From Escherichia coli (GTDB taxonomy: Bacteria; Pseudomonadota; Gammaproteobacteria; Enterobacterales; Enterobacteriaceae): 64,000 nucleotides of DNA. Under the pieces are notes generated by a model. The model had not been told where the DNA came from. It was given only the letters and a program-made list of their open reading frames with translations, and made no database searches. This document shows, piece by piece, positions 1,853-53,050 of this stretch; position 1 is the first letter of the stretch, and every line of letters starts with the position of its first letter. The stretch is taken from assembly GCF_013315695.1 (NCBI RefSeq), contig NZ_CP054353.1. One strand, written 5' to 3'. A program made the translations under genes and the position numbers.

Positions 1853-3283
<1,431 letters not shown>

Positions 3284-3451
3284 GCTCTGCCTCAGCGCCG
3301 CCTTCTCAGAAAAGAGTCGGCGCTGAAATTCTCCTTTCGTTCTGGAAAGCGCCTCGCATAATCTGAAGAAAACCAATGTAATACGCACATCTGGATTGTT
3401 ACCGGCAGATGCCCGGCGTATAGCTGATTCCATTATTCAACACTGCGCCAT

Positions 3452-4566
3452 ATGAAGGGACAGATAATGGAATCGCTCTCAGAAGGAACCACAGCAGGCT
3501 ACCAGCAAATCCACGACGGCATTATTCATCTGGTCGATAGCGCCCGGACGGAAACGGTACGTAGTGTTAACGCGTTAATGACCGCCACATACTGGGAAAT
3601 TGGCCGACGAATTGTCGAATTTGAACAAGGTGGCGAGGCCAGGGCTGCGTATGGTGCGCAGCTAATCAAGCGACTATCAAAGGATTTACGTCTAAGGTAT
3701 AAGCGTGGGTTTTCCACCAGGAATTTATGGCAGTTTAAGAATTTTTATATTTGTTTTCAACGAATTGAAATTGTGCAGACACTGTCTGCACAATTCGCCA
3801 GACACTATCTGGCGAATCTTGCCATTTAGCGCAACTGGCCAAATCCTTCCCCCTGCCCTGGTCCACTTACGTCCGTTTGCTTTCTGTTAAAAACGCTGAC
3901 GCTCGTAGCTTTTATGAGAAAGAGACACTCCGCTGTGGCTGGTCTGCTCGTCAGCTCGAACGGCAAATTGCGACCCAATTTTATGAGCGGACACTACTGT
4001 CACATGACAAATCAGCCATGCTGCAACAACACGCTCCTGCCGAGACGCATATTCTTCCGCAACGGGCGATACGCGATCCCTTTGTGCTCGAATTTCTGGA
4101 ATTGAAAGATGAATATTCAGAATCCGATTTTGAGGAGGCGCTGATCAACCACCTGATGGATTTCATGCTGGAACTTGGGGATGATTTTGCCTTTGTTAGT
4201 CGACAGCGAAGGTTACGCATTGATGACAACTGGTTTCGTGTCGATCTGCTGTTTTTCCACCGCCGTTTACGCTGCCTGCTAATCGTCGATCTAAAAGTGG
4301 GCAAATTCAGCTATAGCGATGCCGGACAGATGAATATGTATCTCAACTACGCCAAAGAGCACTGGACGCTACCGGATGAAAATCCGCCCATCGGTCTGAT
4401 TCTCTGTGCAGAGAAAGGAGTCGGAGAAGCGCATTATGCACTGGCTGGTTTGCCTAACACCGTTCTGGCGAGTGAATATAAGATGCAACTACCTGATGAA
4501 AAACGACTCGCGGATGAACTCGTTCGAACACAGGCGGTGTTAGAGGAAGGCTATAGACGCCGTTAA
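3452..4566 (+). pseudogene. yhcG: yhcG-like DUF1016/PDDEXK-type protein, split into two frames (3452-3829 and about 3769-4566)
   Basis: Two adjacent ORFs in different frames together cover one YhcG-like protein; the conserved LPWSxY...ARSFYE segment lies in the downstream frame; frames overlap at a palindrome-rich segment. Confidence 0.6.
3769..3817. repeat. two overlapping perfect palindromes (P1 3769-3795, P2 3793-3817) with shared core CAGACAC(T)(G/A)TCTG
   Basis: Read directly: AATTGTGCAGACAcTGTCTGCACAATT and ATTCGCCAGAcactaTCTGGCGAAT. Confidence 0.8.
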
Positions 4567-4581
4567 TTTCAGCAGTTTCGA

Positions 4582-4606
4582 ATTCTCCAGACACTGTCTG
4601 GAGAAT
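4582..4606. repeat. third palindrome (P3) of the same family, in the convergent yhcG/yhcH intergenic region
   Basis: ATTCTCCAGACAcTGTCTGGAGAAT, near-identical to P2 including the trailing AATCTT. Confidence 0.8.
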
Positions 4607-4625
4607 CTTTAAAACGAACTAAGTT

Positions 4626-5958
<1,333 letters not shown>

Positions 5959-10101: not shown

Positions 10102-11648
10102 TCTGTAAGGTCAGTGTGATTAACATCATCAGTGACATCCTATCACAGGATTGAAAGTAGGGGGAAATGGCGGGGTTTTCTCTTTGTGCCTCATCATTAC
10201 TATAATTAACTGAATAATTAACTATTGCGAAAAATTAATGTAACGCAGATAAAAACATCCCGACTGAATTATTCATAAGACTATTAACAAGTATTATGAA
10301 TATTATGAATGTGTTCTTACAAAATAATCATAAGCGCATATTTTTTAATGAAAAATCACCTCATCTACAATTAAAAACACGACATCCGCACCATAAATAG
10401 CCTTGCAAAAAATATAACATCATTGTTTTCAATCTGCCGTTTATGGGATTGACCGTTTTCTTTTGACACGGAGTTCAACAATGTTCGGCATAATTATATC
10501 TGTCATCGTATTAATTACGATGGGCTATTTGATCCTGAAAAACTACAAACCTCAGGTGGTGCTGGCTGCCGCAGGTATCTTCCTGATGATGTGCGGTGTC
10601 TGGTTAGGGTTCGGTGGTGTGCTCGATCCCGCCAAAAGCAGCGGCTACTTGATCGTCGATATTTATAATGAAATCCTGCGCATGCTGTCCAACCGCATTG
10701 CCGGATTGGGGCTGTCGATTATGGCAGTGGGTGGTTATGCCCGCTATATGGAGCGCATAGGGGCCAGTCGCGCGATGGTGAGCTTGTTAAGCCGCCCGTT
10801 AAAACTCATTCGCTCGCCGTATATTATTCTGTCGGCAACTTACGTCATCGGCCAAATCATGGCGCAGTTTATTACCAGCGCCTCCGGTCTGGGTATGTTG
10901 CTGATGGTCACCTTATTTCCGACGCTGGTGAGTCTGGGAGTAAGTCGCCTCTCTGCGGTGGCGGTTATCGCAACCACGATGTCCATTGAGTGGGGGATTC
11001 TGGAAACGAACTCCATTTTTGCTGCCCAGGTCGCAGGAATGAAAATTGCCACTTACTTCTTCCACTACCAGCTTCCGGTCGCCTCTTGCGTCATTATCTC
11101 GGTGGCGATCTCCCACTTTTTCGTGCAACGCGCTTTCGACAAAAAAGATAAAAATATCAATCACGAACAGGCAGAGCAAAAAGCTCTCGATAATGTCCCG
11201 CCGCTCTATTACGCCATTTTACCGGTGATGCCGTTAATCCTGATGCTCGGCTCGCTGTTCCTTGCCCACGTCGGGCTGATGCAGTCAGAACTGCATCTGG
11301 TGGTGGTGATGTTACTGAGTTTGACGGTGACGATGTTTGTTGAGTTCTTCCACAAGCATAACTTGCGCGAAACAATGGACGATGTGCAGGCGTTTTTTGA
11401 CGGCATGGGTACGCAGTTTGCCAACGTGGTAACGCTGGTGGTCGCGGGTGAAATATTTGCGAAAGGCTTAACGACGATTGGCACTGTCGATGCGGTTATC
11501 AGGGGGGCGGAGCATTCTGGTCTGGGCGGTATTGGCGTGATGATTATTATGGCGCTGGTCATTGCCATTTGTGCCATTGTGATGGGCTCAGGCGGTGATG
11601 CTGCCAACTTACTGATTTAGTGTATGATGGTGTTTTTGAGGTGCTCCA

Positions 11649-11924
11649 GTGGCTTCTGTTTCTATCAGCTGTCCCTCCTGTTCAGCTACTGACGGGGTGG
11701 TGCGTAACGGCAAAAGCACCGCCGGACATCAGCGCTATCTCTGCTCTCACTGCCGTAAAACATGGCAACTGCAGTTCACTTACACCGCTTCTCAACCCGG
11801 TACGCACCAGAAAATCATTGATATGGCCATGAATGGCGTTGGATGCCGGGCAACAGCCCGCATTATGGGCGTTGGCCTCAACACGATTTTACGTCACTTA
11901 AAAAACTCAGGCCGCAGTCGGTAA
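11649..11924 (+). CDS. insA: IS1 InsA (transposition inhibitor / N-terminal part of transposase)
   Basis: 91-aa ORF with zinc-finger-like CPSC...CSHC motif typical of IS1 InsA. Confidence 0.9.
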
Positions 11925-12346
11925 CCTCGCGCATACAGCCGGGCAGTGACGTCATCGTCTGCGCGGAAATGGACGAACAGTGGGGCTATGTCGGGGCTAA
12001 ATCGCGCCAGCGCTGGCTGTTTTACGCGTATGACAGGCTCCGGAAGACGGTTGTTGCGCACGTATTCGGTGAACGCACTATGGCGACGCTGGGGCGTCTT
12101 ATGAGCCTGCTGTCACCCTTTGACGTGGTGATATGGATGACGGATGGCTGGCCGCTGTATGAATCCCGCCTGAAGGGAAAGCTGCACGTAATCAGCAAGC
12201 GATATACGCAGCGAATTGAGCGGCATAACCTGAATCTGAGGCAGCACCTGGCACGGCTGGGACGGAAGTCGCTGTCGTTCTCAAAATCGGTGGAGCTGCA
12301 TGACAAAGTCATCGGGCATTATCTGAACATAAAACACTATCAATAA
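11843..12346 (+). CDS. insB: IS1 InsB frame (expressed as InsAB' transposase by -1 frameshift)
   Basis: 167-aa ORF overlapping insA in the -1 frame, as in canonical IS1. Confidence 0.85.
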
Positions 12347-12637
12347 GTTGGAGTCATTACCCGCTCAGGCAATGCGCCGTTTATGTCATTTGCCAGTCTT
12401 ATTCCGAATATCGCAGCCGGACTACATGTACCAGCGGTTGTAATGATTATGCCGATGCATTTTGCCACGACGCTAGCGCGCGCTGTTTCGCCGATTACTG
12501 CGGTGGTGGTCGTTACGTCAGGAATTGCAGGCGTTTCGCCTTTTGCGGTAGTGAAGCGGACAGCGATCCCCATGGCAGTCGGTTTCGTGGTGAATATGAT
12601 TGCCACTATCACGCTATTTTATTAAGCGATTAAAAAG

Positions 12638-28423: not shown

Positions 28424-28455
28424 TTAGTTACTGCAGTAGAGGATTTTTTACGGCT

Positions 28456-28489
28456 GCCGGATGCGGCGTGAACGCCCTGTCCGGCCTAC
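28456..28489. repeat. REP element
   Basis: GCCGGATGCGGCGTGAACGCCCTGTCCGGCCTAC matches the canonical enterobacterial REP consensus. Confidence 0.85.
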
Positions 28490-28563
28490 GGTTATGTTCC
28501 GGCTCGTTGGCCTTTGGCAACGATTATCATATGAGATTGGGGCAATTACGCGCCCTCGTCAAA

Positions 28564-40600: not shown

Positions 40601-41431
40601 TTGAAATCATTATTCAATCGGTTAACGGGAAAAGCGGTTAGCCGGACAGCTTTCGTCGAACATCTTGGTCATGAAGTTGTACAACATCATCCAAACTGGA
40701 AAGTCATGATTTCGACTGACCATAAATTGATGCGCATTGATACGGGTCACCAAACGGTGGAAATCACTCTTGATGATGCCTACAAACGTTATCAAGCCGC
40801 ACCAGACCCGCTGGAAGAAGTGGCTGCAGATATGCTGAAACAGCTTGCAGAAATGCTGCCGACCGGGCGCTGTATTGTTCCGGTGATTAAAGAAAAAGCC
40901 TGGCTGGATACCGTTCGCCAACAGCTTAGCCAGTATGAATCTGATCCAGAGATCCTCAACGCCTCGCTGGATTTTGCCTGGGAAGACTTTAACGATGAGT
41001 TAATTATCTTGTTTGCTGAAGATGGTAGCGAAACCATGCGCTATCTGATGCGCTACGAAGTGACCATTGACCGCGAACAAGCCATCAATAATTTGAAGCA
41101 AATATTGCCGGAAGTTTCGGCTGAAATCGTTGATACAGGCGCAAACGCTGGAAAAGTTGCCGTTATCTCCGCAGGGGGTACTTATGAGCCCAGTCTGATG
41201 CTCATTGACGATCTTTGGGTGCAATCACCCGATCCTGAATGCGGCGACCTGTTAGTGACTGTTCCCTCCAGAGGAAAACTGTTTTTCACCTACAATGATC
41301 AGCCAGCAAATCTCAGCGCATTACGACAGTTAACAGAACAATGCTTCCGTGAGGATGACCATCCTCTGACAACACAGATATTCATCCGCCGTAACGGTCA
41401 CTTTTATCCCTGGGTAGAAACCTTGCATTAA
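40601..41431 (+). CDS. hypothetical protein, 276 aa (TTG start)
   Basis: Uninterrupted ORF with a plausible Shine-Dalgarno (AGAGAGGGAA) about 10 bp upstream; protein-like composition; no confident family assignment. Confidence 0.55.
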   Translation: MKSLFNRLTGKAVSRTAFVEHLGHEVVQHHPNWKVMISTDHKLMRIDTGHQTVEITLDDAYKRYQAAPDPLEEVAADMLKQLAEMLPTGRCIVPVIKEKAWLDTVRQQLSQYESDPEILNASLDFAWEDFNDELIILFAEDGSETMRYLMRYEVTIDREQAINNLKQILPEVSAEIVDTGANAGKVAVISAGGTYEPSLMLIDDLWVQSPDPECGDLLVTVPSRGKLFFTYNDQPANLSALRQLTEQCFREDDHPLTTQIFIRRNGHFYPWVETLH

Positions 41432-42296
41432 CGCAACCTCCGTCATGCTTGAAAAAGCTTGTCGGAGTATGTGATGAATGCTGCAAACTCACCGAAGCCG
41501 ATTTTGCCACCAAATCGGCTTTTTTATTGTCACGCGGCAAATTCTGAATGCATCACATAGCCGCACTGCCGCCTGACAAAACAGTTTACCTTCTGCAAAA
41601 TGGGGGGAATAATCTGATTTTATTTGATTACAAATTAACCACTTAAACCTATTTAATGCTGAGCATTGTCAGTCGGTTGATTTTGCGTGCTTTAGCATTC
41701 ACATCTATCCAGACGATGCAGTGAAAATTGGGTAATCCCCAGCAACCGCTGCGTAATGTCGTCTATCTTGTCGCGATCCTGGCATCCCTACATTATTTGT
41801 GGTCTGTGAAGATTATCTCATTGCAGCCCCTCATCTTCGCAGGGCTGGCTTTACAGCTTTTCACCTTACGTTATAAGAAGTTCCGTCGATGATGGCGCTA
41901 ATTTCGTGAATTGTGCGGCTTGTTGCAAATTACACGGTGTTGAAGGTTATTTACATGTTAGCTGTTGATTATCTTCCCTGATAAGACCAGTATTTAGCTG
42001 CCAATTGCTACGAAATCGTTATAATGTGCGACCTCGTCCTCCCTGACGCAGTTTTTGCGCTGCGGAAAAGGTGACATTGGCGCAACGAAGGTATATTTTG
42101 TTTTTTGCCGGAGGATAGCAGCAGATCGCTGCACAATGTCCGTCAAGTCTAACATTGACACTCTGGGGCAAAATAGACCGGCGTCCCGGCCTGCTGGAAT
42201 TTATCGCTATGCATACAGCTGTCGGGGCATACGCTTTACAGACGGCGGTGAAACGCCTGTCACAATCACACTAAACAAAGAGTACGGAACCCACTC

Positions 42297-44127: not shown

Positions 44128-44174
44128 TTTGTGATGCGCGGTGTTTTCATCGCGCTTAGCAAAGAACGTAATCA

Positions 44175-44208
44175 ACGCCGGGCCTGTTAACGCTGCCCGG
44201 CGTTTTTA
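44175..44208. terminator. rho-independent terminator after accC (also downstream of the convergent islet operon)
   Basis: CGCCGGGC-loop-GCCCGGCG hairpin followed by T5. Confidence 0.7.
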
Positions 44209-44218
44209 TTGCCGTTAG

Positions 44219-45265
44219 CTAACGGTAGCTTGCAATTTCCGCTTTCAACGCGCTAATTTCAGCATCGCCATCAACAATTCCCAGCTCAAAGCAGTATGTC
44301 TTTGTTTCCCCTGGCTCTATAAAGGGCAGACGCCCCTGCGCTCGTTCTTTATCACGACCGTCAGGAAAACTATTGCTGACCTCCAGCCCCATAACATATT
44401 CACCCGCGCCTAAATTTTTCCAGTGGATAAAGTTGGGTAGCTGCATGGTGTCGAATTTCTCGTAAATTCCCCACCCCAGTTCGGCGTTCACCAGCGCAAC
44501 TTTACTCATCCCCTGACTGTCGCTATTCAACGTGAGATAGTAAACCTGCTCGTCAAAACCGGGCTGTGGGGTACAAATCTCCAGATGACTGGTTAACCCT
44601 TCCGCCGCATGCGGGGTTCGTGGCGTTACGCTTTTAGCCGACAGCAAGATTTCTGCCTGTGGCGATAATAAAGGCCAGCCGTAATTAAAGTGATAAAGAA
44701 TTTGCAGCGGCTGGCGGGTGAAACCATGATTAGTCACCTTGTCTTCAATGCGCAGCACATTTTCGCCATAACGGCAGCGAATGGTCCTTTCCAGCGTCAG
44801 ATTTTCACCGAACAATCGTGTTTCCCGTACTTTGCCATTGATGACAAATTCAATGCCGTCGTCGGTCCGTTCTGTGCGATACCCCACCTCTTCTGCTGGA
44901 GTCGCAGCCAAACGCCCGTGTAACCCCAGCGTTTCTCCGTTATCCTCACAGGGCGTGCCAATGTAGCTAAGTCCGCAGGTAGTCAGTAACCCCGCGTAGA
45001 AGCTACGTAAAAACCCGTTGCCCTGAGACTCAAAAAAAGCGGGGGCGACAATGCCGTTGGGGGTGATAAAAGAGAGCGCAGTATCCTTGTAGCTGGCCCA
45101 TGCAATATCCAGCGCGCGATCTTTTACCACCGTAAATGCCAGTCCCGCACCAGTACGGACATCAAACGCTTCTGTCCCCTTTGCTCTGCCACTACGTAAC
45201 TCATAGTGTTTAATTCCGGCAACCTGCGAGAGATCGCCAATCCACGACCAAATTTCGTTTTTCAT
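44219..45265 (-). CDS. mutarotase-like / DUF4432-like protein (islet)
   Basis: 348-aa ORF overlapping the upstream kinase stop by 4 bp; family assignment from memory only. Confidence 0.6.
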   Translation of the reverse strand: MKNEIWSWIGDLSQVAGIKHYELRSGRAKGTEAFDVRTGAGLAFTVVKDRALDIAWASYKDTALSFITPNGIVAPAFFESQGNGFLRSFYAGLLTTCGLSYIGTPCEDNGETLGLHGRLAATPAEEVGYRTERTDDGIEFVINGKVRETRLFGENLTLERTIRCRYGENVLRIEDKVTNHGFTRQPLQILYHFNYGWPLLSPQAEILLSAKSVTPRTPHAAEGLTSHLEICTPQPGFDEQVYYLTLNSDSQGMSKVALVNAELGWGIYEKFDTMQLPNFIHWKNLGAGEYVMGLEVSNSFPDGRDKERAQGRLPFIEPGETKTYCFELGIVDGDAEISALKAEIASYR

Positions 45266-46224
45266 TGTGCTGCTTCCCGAATGGACATGTCATGGCGCTG
45301 GATGAACGCTTCGATTTCCGCAAGGCGAGACGTTCCCTCCATTGGGCCACGTCGGGTTACCGCCAGTGCACCGCAGGCGTTGGCATATTGTAATGCCCGA
45401 TGGGCGTCAAACCCTAGCTGGCGGCAGGCAATCCACGCGCCACCAAAACAGTCTCCCGCACCGGTCGGGTCAACTTCTTCCACCGGATAGCTCTCAACAT
45501 GAAACTGCTCATTCGCGGAGTAGTAACTGGCACCTTGATTGCCGCGCTTCACAATCACCTCTTTAACACCTTCTTCAAGAAAACCAGCGATTGCACGCTC
45601 CGGTGTCGAGTGTGGCGACAAGAGCAACACTTCTCCCTCGCTGGGCATATAGATATCTGTTAACTCAAGAACAAAGTGGAGGGCGTCACGCATTTCTGGA
45701 ATATCGAGCATCTCTTTCCGAATATTAGGGTCAAAAGAAATAACGCCACCATTCTCTTTTACAATGGTTACCGCTTTCTTTACTGCGTCTACCATATGGA
45801 ATGAAAACAGGGATGAACCCATAATATGAAAATGGGTACAGTCCTTCAGAATATTTTCATCAACATGCTGCGCCGATAATTTACCGCAAGCGGCATTCTT
45901 GATATTAAAAATAAAATCGCGATCGCCAGAGTTATGATAAGTAACAAAGGCACTCCCGGTAGCTTCCAGAGGTAAGACTGAAATCCCCCTGATATCCACA
46001 CCGTCAGCAGCCAGACGATGTATATTAATATCACCAAAGCCATCATTCCCCACACAGCTAATGATGCCGCACGGAACGCCAAGACGTGTCACCTGGTCGA
46101 TAAAAATAGCGGGTGCGCCACTGGGATAAGGGCCGTTCCAGATACCTGGTTGATCAAATGGCTGGCCGATTTTACTCGCCATAATTTCAACCAGAATTTC
46201 TCCAATTGTGAAGACCTTACTCAT
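45262..46224 (-). CDS. PfkB-family sugar kinase (islet kinase 1)
   Basis: 320-aa ORF with ribokinase-superfamily motifs (GG..N.A, DPTGAGDCF anion-hole). Confidence 0.85.
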   Translation of the reverse strand: MSKVFTIGEILVEIMASKIGQPFDQPGIWNGPYPSGAPAIFIDQVTRLGVPCGIISCVGNDGFGDINIHRLAADGVDIRGISVLPLEATGSAFVTYHNSGDRDFIFNIKNAACGKLSAQHVDENILKDCTHFHIMGSSLFSFHMVDAVKKAVTIVKENGGVISFDPNIRKEMLDIPEMRDALHFVLELTDIYMPSEGEVLLLSPHSTPERAIAGFLEEGVKEVIVKRGNQGASYYSANEQFHVESYPVEEVDPTGAGDCFGGAWIACRQLGFDAHRALQYANACGALAVTRRGPMEGTSRLAEIEAFIQRHDMSIREAAQ

Positions 46225-46245
46225 ATGATTAATTCCTTGAAATGA

Positions 46246-47235
46246 TTAGCTGCGTTTTCTTTTATTTCTTACGTCAAAATAAACGGCTACAAGAATGACT
46301 AATCCTTTAACCACCATCTGATAGAAATAGGGAACGTTCATTAAGTTCATGCCATTATTAATAACGCCGATGGTTAATGCCCCGATTACCGTCCCCACCA
46401 CGGTTCCATAGCCGCCGTTCAGGCTGGTGCCTCCCAGTACAGCCGCAGCAATAGCATCCAGTTCGTAGCTCAACGCGGAATTCGGTTGCCCGGAATAGAG
46501 GCGTGAGGCGAGGATCATCCCGCTGATACCTGCCAGCACAGCTGTAATCATAAAGACTTTTATTTTCAAGCGGGTGACATTTATCCCTGAATAAACTGCC
46601 GCTTCTTTATTACCACCAGTGATATAAATCTTTCGTCCAAAGGTTGTTTTAGTAAGAATGAAATGGTTAATCAGCAATAAGATAATTAATATCCAGATTG
46701 GAATAGGTATATAGAGAAATTCTCCATTCCCCAGCGCCAGAAAGGCATCATCTTTAATCATGATGGGCATACCATCGGTCACTATATAAGCGATACCACG
46801 GAAGATCCCCATAGTAGCAACGGTGACAATAAACGACGGGATCCCCGCTATAGCCGTCAAGCCACCATTTATCATCCCCAGAGCCAGGGCTGCAATAATG
46901 GATAATGGGACCAATAAAATAAATGGAATTCCCCATGAAGCCCCAAGCGCAGCAAATGTGCCAATCAATGCAATGGTTGAACCAACCGATAAATCAATAT
47001 CGCCAAGCAAAAGTACGTAAGTCATTCCATAGGCGGTAATTGCAATTATCGAAACCTGAAGAATAATATTAGTAATGTTATTGGCGGTAAAAAAACTGTC
47101 ATTAATAAAACTGAACAGAATGATTAACACCACCATTCCACTGAGGATACCGCCATATTGCCTGAAGACTTTTTTAAAATTATTTGCAATGGGAATTTCC
47201 GAAGGTTTCGGACTGGCAAGAGTTTTCTCTGTCAT
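46246..47235 (-). CDS. sugar ABC transporter permease (RbsC/AraH-like)
   Basis: 329-aa polytopic membrane protein abutting the ATPase gene. Confidence 0.85.
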   Translation of the reverse strand: MTEKTLASPKPSEIPIANNFKKVFRQYGGILSGMVVLIILFSFINDSFFTANNITNIILQVSIIAITAYGMTYVLLLGDIDLSVGSTIALIGTFAALGASWGIPFILLVPLSIIAALALGMINGGLTAIAGIPSFIVTVATMGIFRGIAYIVTDGMPIMIKDDAFLALGNGEFLYIPIPIWILIILLLINHFILTKTTFGRKIYITGGNKEAAVYSGINVTRLKIKVFMITAVLAGISGMILASRLYSGQPNSALSYELDAIAAAVLGGTSLNGGYGTVVGTVIGALTIGVINNGMNLMNVPYFYQMVVKGLVILVAVYFDVRNKRKRS

Positions 47236-48735
47236 TTAACGTACTCCTGTTGCAGCGGTCATTACCTGTGTCTGCGTTAAATTTTCACATGAATAAATAT
47301 CGGCAATCGTTTTATTACGCATTACCACCAGACGATCGCTAAGTGCCATGACTTCTGGCAGTTCAGAGGACACCAGAATAATTGCTGTCCCTGCCGCAGC
47401 CAGTTGACGTATCACGTTATAGATTTCAAATTTTGCGCCGACATCCACTCCGCGCGTTGGCTCATCGAGCAATAAAATACGCGGAGTTTTCTCCAGCCAC
47501 TTCGATAACACGATTTTCTGTTGATTACCGCCGCTCAGTGCTCCCACTGCCTGATGTACAGAACTCACTTTAGTGTTCATTCTGGCAATTGATTGCAGCG
47601 TCTTCGCCTCTTCTTGTCGGTGATTGATAAGTCCTATCCGCGAAGCGTTATATTGAAACGCCACATGGTGCGTGTTCATATTGACGTCGTGCATCAGCAC
47701 TAACCCTTCTTCCTTGCGGTTTTCGGTCACAAAAGCAATGCCATGATCAATAGCCTGTTTGGGATTAGCGATCCTGACTTCCTTACCATCAATCAACACA
47801 GTCCCGTGATACGAAACGAGGCCAAATAGCGCCTTCATCACATCGGAACGCCCGGCCCCCACCAGGCCAAAAAATCCGAGGACTTCCCCCGGACGCACAG
47901 CGAAACTGACCTCTTTAAAAAGCGAAGGATGGGAAAGGTTTTTTACTTCCAGTTTTGCAGGAACATTTTCATCCGGCTTTTCCCCAAGACGTGCTGGCCA
48001 AATATTTTTCATTTCCCGACCAACCATTTGGGCAATCAAATGCTGGATATCACTGTTTTTCTTTTCATGCGTAGCGATATACTCACCGTCGCGGATCACC
48101 GAAATATCATCTGAAATCCGCATAATTTCATCCATGCGATGAGAGATATAAATAACCGCACAACCTCGCTGCTTTAATTTCTCAATAATGTTAAACAGAA
48201 TCTCTGCTTCATTATCACTTAGCGAAGATGTCGGTTCATCCATAATCACGACATCTGCTGCATAGCTTAAGGCTTTGGCAATTTCTACCAGTTGCCTATG
48301 TGCCATCGACATATTGCCGACCATTTCCAGCGGATCCAGTGGGATGCCCAGTTCCGCGAGGAGATTCTGGCAATCTGCGAGCATTTTTTTATCGTTAATA
48401 ATGCCAAAACGTCGCGGTTCATTATTGGCATAAATATTTTCCGCCACGGTCATATTATTACTCAGGCTCAGTTCCTGAAAAATAATCGCAATCCCTAACT
48501 GGCGAGAATGCTGCGGATTATTAATGGTGATGGTTTCACCACGTAGTGTTATCGTTCCCTGGGTTGGCGGATAAACACCGGCGAGTATTTTCATTAATGT
48601 CGATTTACCGGCACCATTCTCGCCTAATAAAGTATGCACCCGCCCTTTACGTAAAGAGAGGGTAATATCTTTTAATGCCTGAACATGACCAAATGTCTTC
48701 GCAATATGCGAAACATCAAGAATAACATCCGTCAT
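47236..48735 (-). CDS. sugar ABC transporter ATP-binding protein, duplicated-domain type (RbsA-like)
   Basis: 499-aa ORF with two ABC cassettes (Walker A GENGAGKST, signature LSGGNQQK). Confidence 0.88.
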   Translation of the reverse strand: MTDVILDVSHIAKTFGHVQALKDITLSLRKGRVHTLLGENGAGKSTLMKILAGVYPPTQGTITLRGETITINNPQHSRQLGIAIIFQELSLSNNMTVAENIYANNEPRRFGIINDKKMLADCQNLLAELGIPLDPLEMVGNMSMAHRQLVEIAKALSYAADVVIMDEPTSSLSDNEAEILFNIIEKLKQRGCAVIYISHRMDEIMRISDDISVIRDGEYIATHEKKNSDIQHLIAQMVGREMKNIWPARLGEKPDENVPAKLEVKNLSHPSLFKEVSFAVRPGEVLGFFGLVGAGRSDVMKALFGLVSYHGTVLIDGKEVRIANPKQAIDHGIAFVTENRKEEGLVLMHDVNMNTHHVAFQYNASRIGLINHRQEEAKTLQSIARMNTKVSSVHQAVGALSGGNQQKIVLSKWLEKTPRILLLDEPTRGVDVGAKFEIYNVIRQLAAAGTAIILVSSELPEVMALSDRLVVMRNKTIADIYSCENLTQTQVMTAATGVR

Positions 48736-48795
48736 AATGACCTCGGTGTCACAACAAAACGTCGATAACGTTTTGTTGTGAAATGAAGATGTTTA

Positions 48796-49686
48796 TCATT
48801 TACCTGTATAAACGCCGGGTTGTACCGGGATCATTTTTTCTACCGGTTTACCATTGAGGTGATCAACAGCGGCATCAATGGCTTTAGCACCCATTTGATC
48901 GGGATATTGCCGAATCACGGCCGCAAACGTTTTTTCACTGTCAACGGCATCACGCGCTTCTTTCATGCCGTCAAAACCAATGATTTTGATGTTGTCGTTA
49001 TGCGCAGATTTCGCTGCGATAACCGCTGCCAGCGCCGCATCATCACCAAAGCCAAACAGACCATTCAGGTTGGCATTTGCCTGCATAATGTTTTGCGCAG
49101 TCGTTAACGCTTCAGCCCGCGTAATACCAGGCTGTTCAGCAACAATTTTAATATCCGGTGTATCGCTTAACCCTTTCTTAAAACCATCAACGCGCGCAAC
49201 CACCGATTGTAATGCCGGATAAGAAATAATGGCTACAGTACCTTTACCATTCAAAAGTTTGCCCATTAACTTGCCTGCTTCAACGCCTCCCGCGTAGTTA
49301 TCGGTCGCAACATGCGATACGACCGGAACGCCTTCCGCAGCGACGTCGACGGTGATAACGGGAATACCGGCCTTATCGGCTTTAATTATCGCCGCCTGGA
49401 CGCCTTTCGAATCGACCGGAGAGATAATAATGGCATCCACTTTTTTAGTAATAAAATCCTCAACATCAGAAAGTTGTTTGTTTAAATCCTGATTGGCAAT
49501 AGAGACACTTAAATTGACATTGTCTTTTTTTGCCTCTTCTTTCATGGCATTCGCAAGATCAATATAGAAAGGATGTTGCTGTGTTAATAATGACGCACCA
49601 ATTTTATACTCTTTTGCCAACGAGCTTTGCGAGAACAATGCCAGGCTCACCAACATAGCTGAACCAAGTAATTTAATATTTTTCAT
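48796..49686 (-). CDS. periplasmic sugar-binding protein (RbsB-like)
   Basis: 296-aa ORF with signal peptide MKNIKLLGSAMLVSLALFSQSSLA. Confidence 0.85.
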   Translation of the reverse strand: MKNIKLLGSAMLVSLALFSQSSLAKEYKIGASLLTQQHPFYIDLANAMKEEAKKDNVNLSVSIANQDLNKQLSDVEDFITKKVDAIIISPVDSKGVQAAIIKADKAGIPVITVDVAAEGVPVVSHVATDNYAGGVEAGKLMGKLLNGKGTVAIISYPALQSVVARVDGFKKGLSDTPDIKIVAEQPGITRAEALTTAQNIMQANANLNGLFGFGDDAALAAVIAAKSAHNDNIKIIGFDGMKEARDAVDSEKTFAAVIRQYPDQMGAKAIDAAVDHLNGKPVEKMIPVQPGVYTGK

Positions 49687-49721
49687 AAATAATCCTCATT
49701 GTTTTTGTAGGGTACAACATC

Positions 49722-50603
<882 letters not shown>

Positions 50604-50917
50604 TTACAAAATGAAGAAAGAGAATCTTCACTTTCATTTTGAAAGCAAACTAGCACAGCAAAAGCGGCAAAAAGCGTGATGCATGTCGAATATCATCAAA
50701 ATAACTTACAAAAAATAACTTAATTTGTTTTTTACTTTGTAAGTGAAACCAATGACACCTCTGCATAAATATGAATATATTCATTTATTTTTCAATGTAT
50801 TAAGCTATTTTCGTTGCGATTTTTGACCCATGATTTTCTTTTCGAATTGTCGATATTATTGAAGGGTAACTTTCAAAGAAAAATACAAGGGGCTATAGTG
50901 TTACGCATTAAAGGCCA

Positions 50918-51748
50918 ATGAAGAGTGTTAACGTGCCGAGAAAATCGTCTAACCTACTGAAACGCAGATTAAAAATTGCAGAAATTGTTGCCGCCCAGGG
51001 TGAAATCAAAGTTGATGACTTATCTGCGCAACTTGGTGTCTCTAGCGTGACGATCCGCGGCGATCTCAGTTATCTGGAGCAACAGGGATATTTAAAGCGA
51101 TCATTTGGCGGTGCTATTGCGACACCACTCTCCTCTGAACCAGAAGCGATACAACCGATCGCGCCGTTGTCTCTGGCACAACAAATGGAAATAGCACGAC
51201 ATTGCGCACGGTTAATTCGGGATCGTGACACGCTATTTCTTGGACATGGGACAATCTGCCGTAAGATCATTCCCTTGCTCAGCGAAGTGAAAAAACTGCG
51301 TCTGATCACCAACGATCCCGAACATGCGCTGCTGGCAAATCAGTTTATTGATGGCGAAATAATACTGGCTGGCAGTGAAATGCTGCGCCCCGATACCGCA
51401 CTGGCCGGAAAACCTCTCGAACAGGCACTTCAGCATTTCACCATTACACATAGCATTCTGGAAATCAGCCATCTGGATGCTGATGGTACTTTAAATATCA
51501 ACGTTCCCAGACTTGCCGCTGCCTGGCAGCTCTGTTTCGATAATGCCCAGAATAAGACGGTTATCGTTGCCGCCGATCCTGCGCCATCAACGGCTGCTAT
51601 CGGGCATTTGCATCAAGCAGAAAATGTGATCGTCAGCCGCAGCATTAACGAACAATATCAGCAACAATTGCAGTCGGCTGATTTCGTTATCCTTTATACC
51701 AGTAATGAGTGCTTTACCTGGTCCAATCGCGAAAGGCTTCAGGAATGA
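50918..51748 (+). CDS. DeoR-family transcriptional regulator
   Basis: 276-aa ORF with N-terminal DeoR HTH (LSAQLGVSSVTIRGDL) and sugar-phosphate-binding C-domain; divergent from the aldolase-ABC operon. Confidence 0.8.
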   Translation: MKSVNVPRKSSNLLKRRLKIAEIVAAQGEIKVDDLSAQLGVSSVTIRGDLSYLEQQGYLKRSFGGAIATPLSSEPEAIQPIAPLSLAQQMEIARHCARLIRDRDTLFLGHGTICRKIIPLLSEVKKLRLITNDPEHALLANQFIDGEIILAGSEMLRPDTALAGKPLEQALQHFTITHSILEISHLDADGTLNINVPRLAAAWQLCFDNAQNKTVIVAADPAPSTAAIGHLHQAENVIVSRSINEQYQQQLQSADFVILYTSNECFTWSNRERLQE

Positions 51749-51758
51749 GAGGGGTTTT

Positions 51759-52715
51759 GTGACAATAACTATCTGCGCTATGGGCGAATTGCTGGCCGAG
51801 TTTTTGTCCCGCAACCCACATCAAAAATTCACTCAGCCTGGGGAGTTTATCGGGCCATTTCCCAGCGGTGCACCAGCAATTTTTGCTGCTCAGGTGGCAA
51901 AACTGTCCCATCGGGCCATCTTCTTCGGATGTGTTGGTAATGATGATTTTGGCCGACTCATTATAGAGCGTCTCCGTCATGAAGGTGTCATTACCGATGG
52001 GATTCACGTTATGAACAATGCCGTCACAGGTACGGCGTTCGTGAGTTATCAAAATCCCCAGCAGCGGGATTTCGTCTTTAATATCCCTAACAGCGCCTGC
52101 GGTTTGTTTACTGCCGAGCACATTGATAAGGATCTGCTTAAACAGTGTAACCATCTGCATATTGTGGGCTCATCGTTGTTCTCATTTCGCATGATCGATG
52201 TCATGCGTAAAGCAATAACGACGATCAAATCGGCTGGCGGAACCGTTTCTTTCGATCCCAATATTCGCAAAGAGATGCTGAGCATTCCTGAAATGGCGCA
52301 GGCCCTCGATTATTTGATTGAATATACGGATATTTTTATCCCCAGCGAAAGCGAACTCCCTTTCTTCGCGCGTCACAAAAATCTGTCAGAAGAACAGATT
52401 GTTAGCGATCTTCTCCACGGCGGCGTAAAACATGTGGCGATAAAACGCGCCCAGCGTGGGGCCAGCTATTACAAGCTTAAAAACGGTACATTACACGCCC
52501 AGCATGTTACAGGCCACGATATCGAAATTATCGATCCAACGGGTGCAGGCGACTGCTTTGGCGCAACGTTTATCACTCTTTTCTTATCCGGTTTCCCGGC
52601 ACACAAGGCGCTGCAATATGCAAATGCCAGCGGCGCGCTCGCCGTAATGCAGCAAGGTCCGATGGAAGGGATATCCTCACTGACTGACATTGAAGACTTT
52701 TTGCAGCAGCACTGA
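51759..52715 (+). CDS. PfkB-family sugar kinase (islet kinase 2, paralog of kinase 1)
   Basis: About 50% identical to kinase 1 over its full length; GTG start chosen after RBS GAGAGGGG and by alignment with the kinase 1 N-terminus. Confidence 0.8.
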   Translation: MTITICAMGELLAEFLSRNPHQKFTQPGEFIGPFPSGAPAIFAAQVAKLSHRAIFFGCVGNDDFGRLIIERLRHEGVITDGIHVMNNAVTGTAFVSYQNPQQRDFVFNIPNSACGLFTAEHIDKDLLKQCNHLHIVGSSLFSFRMIDVMRKAITTIKSAGGTVSFDPNIRKEMLSIPEMAQALDYLIEYTDIFIPSESELPFFARHKNLSEEQIVSDLLHGGVKHVAIKRAQRGASYYKLKNGTLHAQHVTGHDIEIIDPTGAGDCFGATFITLFLSGFPAHKALQYANASGALAVMQQGPMEGISSLTDIEDFLQQH

Positions 52716-52807
52716 ACGGCAATTTTCTGTCAGATTATTTTCCCTGCCTGAAGAGTTGCCGTAGAATTGCCCGTTTCTCGTATCCCCCCATGAGGAGGAC
52801 CCCTTCC

Positions 52808-53050
52808 GTGGACACTCGTTTTGTTCAGGCCCATAAAGAGGCGCGCTGGGCGCTGGGGCTGACCCTTTTGTATCTGGCGGTATGGTTAGTAGCCGCTTAC
52901 TTACCTGGCGTTACCCCCGGTTTTACCGGCTTTCCACGCTGGTTTGAGATGGCTTGCATCCTGACGCCGCTGCTGTTTATTGGACTGTGCTGGGCGATGG
53001 TGAAATTTATCTATCGCGATATCCCACTGGAGGATGACGATGCAGCTTGA
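52808..53050 (+). CDS. yhdT: small membrane protein YhdT (DUF997)
   Basis: 80-aa two-helix ORF with GTG start (VDTRFVQAH), overlapping the panF start. Confidence 0.85.
   Translation: MDTRFVQAHKEARWALGLTLLYLAVWLVAAYLPGVTPGFTGFPRWFEMACILTPLLFIGLCWAMVKFIYRDIPLEDDDAA

Follow-up and report, generated by a model that had tools for sequence, protein, structure and literature searches.

The gltD-yhcG spacer of an Escherichia coli genome as one haplotype of a multi-allelic site between gltD and nanQ

In 2009, Touchon et al. reportedly described hot spots of integration and replacement between conserved core genes in Escherichia coli genomes. The yhc locus, a beta-class chaperone-usher fimbrial cluster that follows gltD in K-12, has been reported only from phylogroup A strains (PMC5216030) and was elsewhere classed as sporadic and highly under-represented, with the choice between ancient remnant and recent acquisition left open (PMC3559732). 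Length variation of the adjoining gene, yhcG, is used in LSPA-6 typing of E. coli O157:H7 (PMC3514354, PMC8733641). Here, we report the structure, distribution, and probable history of the gltD-yhcG spacer in a 64,000-nucleotide stretch of E. coli contig NZ_CP054353.1 (assembly GCF_013315695.1), referred to below as the window.

Structure of the gltD-nanQ interval compared with K-12

A sequence-only reading of the window had held that gltF and yhcA-F are missing between gltD and yhcG, and tblastn with the K-12 proteins indeed gave 0 matches in the 64 kb. The K-12 gene order had been given rightly (the MG1655 annotation has gltF, yhcA, yhcD, yhcE, and yhcF between gltD and yhcG); K-12 does not share the gltD-yhcG adjacency, and the contrast with it is real. 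In the window, the left conserved flank of the variable site is gltD, the product of which has 99% amino acid identity to K-12 GltD; the right conserved flank is nanQ, convergent with gltD, and a yhcG-like gene lies between them. The features are as follows.

1865-3283, plus strand: gltD, glutamate synthase small subunit (472-aa open reading frame; RefSeq annotation of a 100%-identical genome).
3286-3339, plus strand: haplotype-specific 54 bp without a K-12 counterpart (blastn breakpoints against K-12).
3292-3326, plus strand: stem-loop W, conserved, just 3' of the gltD stop (fold and covariation).
3340-3466, plus strand: yhcG upstream region, U1 (alignment of 11 sequences).
3467-4566, plus strand: yhcG pseudogene, frameshifted (Pfam domains on two open reading frames; RefSeq note "frameshifted").
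3769-3820, plus strand: two in-frame palindromic repeat units inside yhcG (repeat search).
3789-3796, plus strand: site of a 13-bp deletion in yhcG, with one CACAATTC copy left (comparison with IAI39).
4581-4609, plus strand: palindrome H' (AATTCTCCAGACACTGTCTGGAGAAT), between the yhcG stop and the nanQ stop (repeat families D1/D2, inverted repeat I5).
4626-5090, minus strand: nanQ (yhcH) (open reading frame list, RefSeq annotation, tblastn).

The end of gltD at 3283 stands as first read, but the 168 bp given for the spacer had been measured to an ATG at 3452 that occurs only in the window and in IAI39 (the other aligned sequences do not have it, and most read ATATAAAGG). RefSeq and K-12 annotations start yhcG at ATG 3467 (MESLSEG...), and this conserved start makes the spacer 183 bp long. 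AAGGGA ahead of it is the likely ribosome-binding site. Two blocks of U1 are invariant in the 11-sequence alignment, ATTGTT (TTGTTA, 3396-3401) and GTATAGCT (TATAGC, 3419-3424), and lie 17 nt apart; we regard them as a candidate yhcG promoter. A consensus promoter scan flagged none in U1.

Homology to K-12 (blastn) stops at window position 3285, two bases past the gltD TAA, and restarts at 3340, which sets the breakpoints at 3285/3286 and 3339/3340. Between them, K-12 carries 7,080 bp (5,881 bp without IS5), made up of a palindrome (H), an AT-rich spacer, gltF-yhcADEF, and the IS5 copy that splits yhcE in MG1655. GC content is 43% over this island and 32% in the spacer ahead of gltF, against 56% in gltBD. 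Conversely, blastn found no K-12 counterpart to window positions 3286-3339, hairpin included; the K-12 left junction instead reads GAGGTAACAATG, followed by the perfect palindrome AATTCGCCAGACTGTGTCTGGCGAAT. The short direct repeats that had been suggested for the junction did not appear: there was no target-site duplication or useful microhomology at the breakpoints, where the left (GTTTAAGC) and right (GGTTAATGT) ends resemble each other only loosely, and no flanking direct repeats surround the K-12 island except yhcG-type palindromes. Apart from IS5, the annotated genes of the K-12 segment are all fimbrial, with no integrase among them, and the matching window site is free of tRNA genes, so that the segment lacks the marks of a site-specific island (integrase, tRNA/att site, flanking direct repeats).

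The yhcG upstream region is 74% identical between K-12 and the window, against 95.5% for gltD and 96.3% for nanQ. A clean indel model is ruled out by the 54 window-specific bases together with this 26%-diverged upstream region. Given those bases, and no duplications, integrase, or tRNA, the two states are therefore replacement haplotypes and not a clean insertion or deletion. The original choice between a deletion here and an insertion in K-12 holds only in part; the window junction is that of the E. coli majority, and K-12 carries a replacement haplotype rather than a simple insertion. A phylogroup A and a B1 genome showed the usual 1-3% difference in both flanks compared, one running from gltB as far as the gltD stop and the other beginning at the nanQ stop (phylogroups here were taken from PMC5216030 and strain names). 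An import visible as raised flank divergence was thus rejected, and any recombination ends therefore fall within the gltD-stop-to-nanQ interval.

The hairpin had been placed correctly, with arms CAGCGCCG (3293-3300) and CGGCGCTG (3318-3325), and was rightly described as having no T-tract (no T run occurs 3' of the stem, which continues AAATTCTCCTTTCG). Stem-loop W is GC-rich, with an outer stem of 8-9 bp (3293-3300/3318-3325) plus inner pairs, and folds at -20 kcal/mol (z = -1.2, ordinary for sequence of this composition). In the 11 aligned window-type sequences (8 distinct), its 14 proposed pairs were formed in 93.5% of cells, compared with 31-51% in slid controls, and two changes were compensatory (C-G to U-A in E. 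whittamii; U-A to C-G in Pseudocitrobacter). A terminator scan called nothing at 3293-3325 on either strand, and no Rfam family matched; as an intrinsic (Rho-independent) terminator, the hairpin was rejected, having the GC-rich stem-loop without the T/U run. One exact and one 3-mismatch match to stem-loop W were found in the 64 kb (0.46 expected; 10/100 shuffles reach 2). A dispersed repeat of the REP/BIME type was ruled out, as the hairpin is single-copy in the window and without an Rfam match. Stem-loop W is probably the 3'-end hairpin of the gltBD mRNA, where it may act in stabilization or in factor-dependent termination. Other haplotypes carry different hairpins at the same position after gltD, which fits a generic need for structure there.

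Further differences from K-12 were noted elsewhere in the window. At 11594-12363, a 770-bp IS1 copy (starting GGTGATGCTGCCAACTTACTGAT), flanked by a GCTCAGGC duplication, interrupts dcuD, a gene annotated as dcuC in other strains. An 8.7-kb island between accC and yhdT (44128-52808; 110 bp in K-12) encodes two sugar kinases and an aldose 1-epimerase besides a sugar ABC transporter and a substrate-binding protein and is present in 1,419/5,426 genomes. At 40743-41600, about 860 bp stand against 102 bp in K-12; a 276-aa open reading frame in the window spans the region annotated in K-12 as yrdF/yrdE pseudogene fragments, so K-12 probably carries a deletion. The tldD-yhdP spacer (28450-28513) is about 211 bases longer in K-12, and the two alignment blocks share 64 bp of window sequence, a pattern suggestive of different copy numbers of a repeat element.

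Locus states in E. coli and other species

We surveyed 5,426 complete E. coli genomes. The window-type junction (gltD, hairpin, yhcG), called at >=80% coverage of a 411-bp junction probe, was found in 3,141 (58%), including O157:H7, O26, O145, IAI39, CE10, and strain 536. The K-12 fimbrial cluster was found in 1,148 genomes (21%), all with at least 99% identity, by a megablast search that would overlook genomes with a strongly diverged yhc allele. In a third state, represented by 947 genomes (17%), gltD is followed by one palindrome and nanQ, without yhcG; the gltD-nanQ gap of E. coli 81009 (L004, 12135-12201), whose lineage we take to be ST131, is only 67 bp long and holds one palindrome. About 190 genomes fell outside these three main classes. 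In a fourth state, seen among these in O158:H23 strain CFIAFB20140388 (L026, 3293-12001), yhcG is replaced by an 8.7-kb SWIM zinc finger/DUF5691/ATPase/DUF5682/VWA cluster with 56% GC and entirely different junction sequences. Absence of gltF-yhcADEF is thus the usual E. coli state, and it was already documented. IS5 is missing from most yhc copies outside K-12, both in our comparison and in the literature (PMC5216030).

The ST131-type junction (gltD-GAGGTAACAATG-palindrome-nanQ) shares features with both main haplotypes. The 40 bp on its left are those of the K-12 left junction; the palindrome is the same as internal repeat 1 in the yhcG of strain 536, and the end of gltD resembles that of B2 strains. 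These features point both ways, and neither a K-12-type nor a window-type origin was established. We also considered GAGGTAACAATG plus palindrome as a small open reading frame, since a Shine-Dalgarno sequence and a start codon can be made out, heading a frame of 19 codons in ST131-type genomes or 24 codons in K-12; no supporting evidence was found.

For other species, one genome per species was scanned with a gltD 3'-end pattern, which yielded 19 loci (E. fergusonii was not retrieved). The window arrangement of hairpin, spacer, and yhcG behind gltD recurs in E. albertii, E. whittamii, Escherichia sp. E1V33, two further Escherichia representatives, and Pseudocitrobacter vendiensis, and the junction aligns with that of the window base for base and in register. 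Escherichia sp. MOD1-EC7003 (L018) has the ST131-type junction. In Kluyvera, Citrobacter, Enterobacter, and others, gltD adjoins nanQ with other hairpins between them, and none of the 19 scanned loci had gltF or yhcA-F after gltD. Identity to the window was 96.7% for the spacer, 94.2% for gltD, and 90.8% for nanQ in E. albertii, 93-94% for the spacer in the two further Escherichia species representatives, and 77.6% for the spacer and 84.8% for gltD in Pseudocitrobacter. Because spacer identity tracks that of the flanking genes, the window haplotype is therefore taken as vertically inherited.

Clusters related to yhc do occur beside gltD in other species. Some E. albertii genomes and E. marmotae have a whole gltF-yhcADEF-like cluster directly after gltD in the K-12 orientation; in Citrobacter (L035, 7465-12619) and a Kluyvera sp. 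(L037, 5486-12601), yhc-like beta-fimbrial clusters abut gltD in inverted (convergent) orientation. In the Kluyvera cluster, three DUF1120 subunit genes stand in tandem. The clusters have only 69-76% nucleotide identity to K-12. Amino acid identity of YhcD homologues to K-12 is 82% for some E. albertii and 67% for E. marmotae and lies at 56-58% for Citrobacter, Kluyvera, and Klebsiella. E. marmotae is nearer to E. coli than E. albertii is, and the cluster identities are out of step with these relationships. E. marmotae also shares the K-12-type terminator (89%) and upstream region (83%), followed by a decayed yhcG. With diverged yhc clusters and shared junctions across species, both haplotypes are therefore older than E. 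coli, and the gltD-nanQ site is an old multi-allelic hot spot.

Decay of yhcG and its palindromic repeats

The yhcG gene of the window is split into open reading frames at 3452-3829 (3467-3829 from the conserved start) and 3877-4566; in the RefSeq genome with 100% identity, it is listed as a pseudogene with a frameshift. The frameshift comes from a 13-bp loss (ACCCCCACAATTC) between two CACAATTC direct repeats flanking the palindromic units described below, where IAI39 reads CACAATTC-ACCCC-CACAATTC; this deletion allele occurs in 6 of the 5,426 complete genomes. Both Pfam domains of the family, PF17761 (DUF1016_N; E = 1e-28) and PF06250 (YhcG_C; E = 3e-56), were found, on the two separate open reading frames; the window thus retains the domains of a YhcG-family PD-(D/E)XK nuclease without an uninterrupted reading frame. 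The intact IAI39 YhcG (L002, 2168-3277) matches PADLOC class PDC-S02 (E = 1.6e-133), which is a candidate defense class only, and the best matches of a literature search included no report of tested YhcG function.

The middle of yhcG is built of two or three in-frame 36-39-bp units around CAGACNNNGTCTG, encoding a repeated "I.QT.S" peptide; in the window, the cores are CAGACACTGTCTG (3776-3788) and CAGACACTATCTG (3799-3811), encoding repeated QTLS. Palindromes of this family (about 28 bp, core CAGACNNNGTCTG) occur three times in the window (chance expectation, 0.16) and lie at 2632-2660, 10130-10236, and 10970-10998 of the K-12 locus (L003). Single copies follow yhcG, and copies of the same family follow gltD in K-12 and ST131-type genomes. 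The downstream palindrome with its left flank (4567-4606) is 75% identical to internal positions 3755-3794; with this likeness and the common family, the extragenic palindromes resemble copies or remnants of the repeat within yhcG. In E. albertii NBRC 107761, the 3' two-thirds of yhcG are lost, the deletion joining an internal palindrome to the downstream one; other, independently decayed copies were found in O26 RM8426, E. marmotae, and C. amalonaticus.

It is possible, and we put it forward tentatively, that at this ancient trans-species hot spot the palindromic repeats of yhcG (CAGACNNNGTCTG, QTxS) repeatedly cause frameshifts and deletions that leave single palindromes in the spacers. Such repeat-driven events would include the 13-bp loss in the window, the E. 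albertii truncation, and perhaps the loss of yhcG in ST131-type B2 strains, and one leftover palindrome would form the left border of the K-12 yhc haplotype.

Origin of the haplotypes and comparison with known systems

We conclude with high confidence that window positions 3284-3466 hold the usual gltD-yhcG spacer, passed on vertically as part of the commonest haplotype at a multi-allelic hot spot, and that nothing was lost here. The hot spot sits between two convergent core genes, gltD and nanQ, and the spacer has two parts: a conserved stem-loop, most likely the 3'-end hairpin of the gltBD transcript, and the presumed promoter and leader region of yhcG. In the alternative K-12 haplotype, the 54 bp with the hairpin are swapped for the chaperone-usher operon gltF-yhcADEF (beta class), preceded by another palindromic hairpin and an AT-rich spacer, and the adjoining yhcG upstream region is likewise of a deeply diverged type. 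The yhc haplotype, found in about 21% of E. coli, most likely arrived by homologous recombination through the conserved flanks (allelic replacement) and not by site-specific insertion.

The yhc cluster might alternatively be the ancestral Enterobacteriaceae resident after gltD; the window haplotype would then go back to a single very old loss that preceded the divergence of Escherichia and Pseudocitrobacter, with vertical inheritance since. In its favor, yhc-like clusters are found next to gltD in Citrobacter, Kluyvera, E. albertii, E. marmotae, and phylogroup A of E. coli, and an ancient origin is one possibility named by Wurpel et al. (PMC3559732). We nonetheless consider this unlikely: YhcD identities (82/67/56-57%) do not follow the species relationships and fall far below the nucleotide identity of flanking gltD (about 92-94%), cluster orientation differs between genera, and most sampled genera have gltD beside nanQ with neither yhc nor yhcG. 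Such an ancestry is compatible with our verdict for this strain. An ancient cluster with many separate losses would likewise account for the yhc-like clusters found next to gltD in several genera, and the window haplotype would then descend from a very old deletion.

Much less probable is the simple view that a foreign fimbrial island recently entered a window-type spacer of the K-12/phylogroup A lineage, whether by transposing or by integrating in a site-specific manner. The low GC content of the island (43%; leader, 32%), its restricted distribution with >=99% identity across 1,148 genomes, and the IS5 inside K-12 yhcE speak for it. An insertion of this kind, however, should have split the ancestral 54 bp, which are missing instead; there is no target-site duplication, the only flanking direct repeats are yhcG-type palindromes, and there is no annotated integrase and no tRNA at the matching window site. 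The neighboring upstream region is, moreover, deeply diverged and of a type shared with E. marmotae, counterpart clusters occupy the same site in other species, and most copies outside K-12 lack IS5 (PMC5216030). That this strain or a close lineage recently deleted gltF-yhcADEF is scarcely credible, even though K-12 has the genes that the window strain is without and palindromes at the locus mediate deletions elsewhere (E. albertii yhcG truncation), as the junction is common to 3,141 genomes and to other species with species-level divergence, the 54 junction bp with the conserved hairpin are absent from K-12 and so are no deletion scar, the upstream region is 26% different from K-12, and no yhc remnants lie in the window.

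With the window spacer read as the common inherited haplotype, K-12 is the atypical strain at this locus, a point of small significance. The gene gltF, formerly counted in a gltBDF operon, is part of an optional fimbrial cluster missing from about four-fifths of complete E. coli genomes. Only mildly new are the exact haplotype structure, the age of the haplotype, and the repeat-driven decay of yhcG. By-products are the exact breakpoints, a four-state census covering 5,426 genomes, and evidence that the two main haplotypes are both older than E. coli. On a small scale, the locus could illustrate how alleles are replaced at a hot spot flanked by core genes and how repeats drive the decay of a candidate defense gene.

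Among described systems, the K-12 yhc beta-class locus occupies the same site downstream of gltD, and its presence or absence is the polymorphism concerned here; K-12 and related loci have an usher gene (PapC_N/Usher/PapC_C; yhcD), whereas tblastn with the K-12 proteins found no usher gene in the 64-kb window, nor any PapD-type chaperone (yhcA) or DUF1120 subunit gene (gltF, yhcF). Rho-independent terminators and 3'-end stabilizing stem-loops resemble the window hairpin in that it is a GC-rich stem-loop 9 nt past an operon-end stop with conserved pairing, but it has no U tract and so falls outside the definition of an intrinsic terminator. As in the core-gene hot spots of E. coli, several unrelated cargoes occupy the gltD-nanQ site (yhcG alone, yhc with yhcG, nothing, or an 8.7-kb cluster); the site differs in having no tRNA, integrase, or prophage, and exchange would have proceeded through its flanks. 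The yhcG polymorphism of LSPA-6 typing concerns the same indel-variable gene, to which the window contributes a 13-bp deletion allele; the typing papers score amplicon length only, whereas the present comparison places the source of the variation in palindromic in-frame repeats of 36-39 bp and in short direct repeats.
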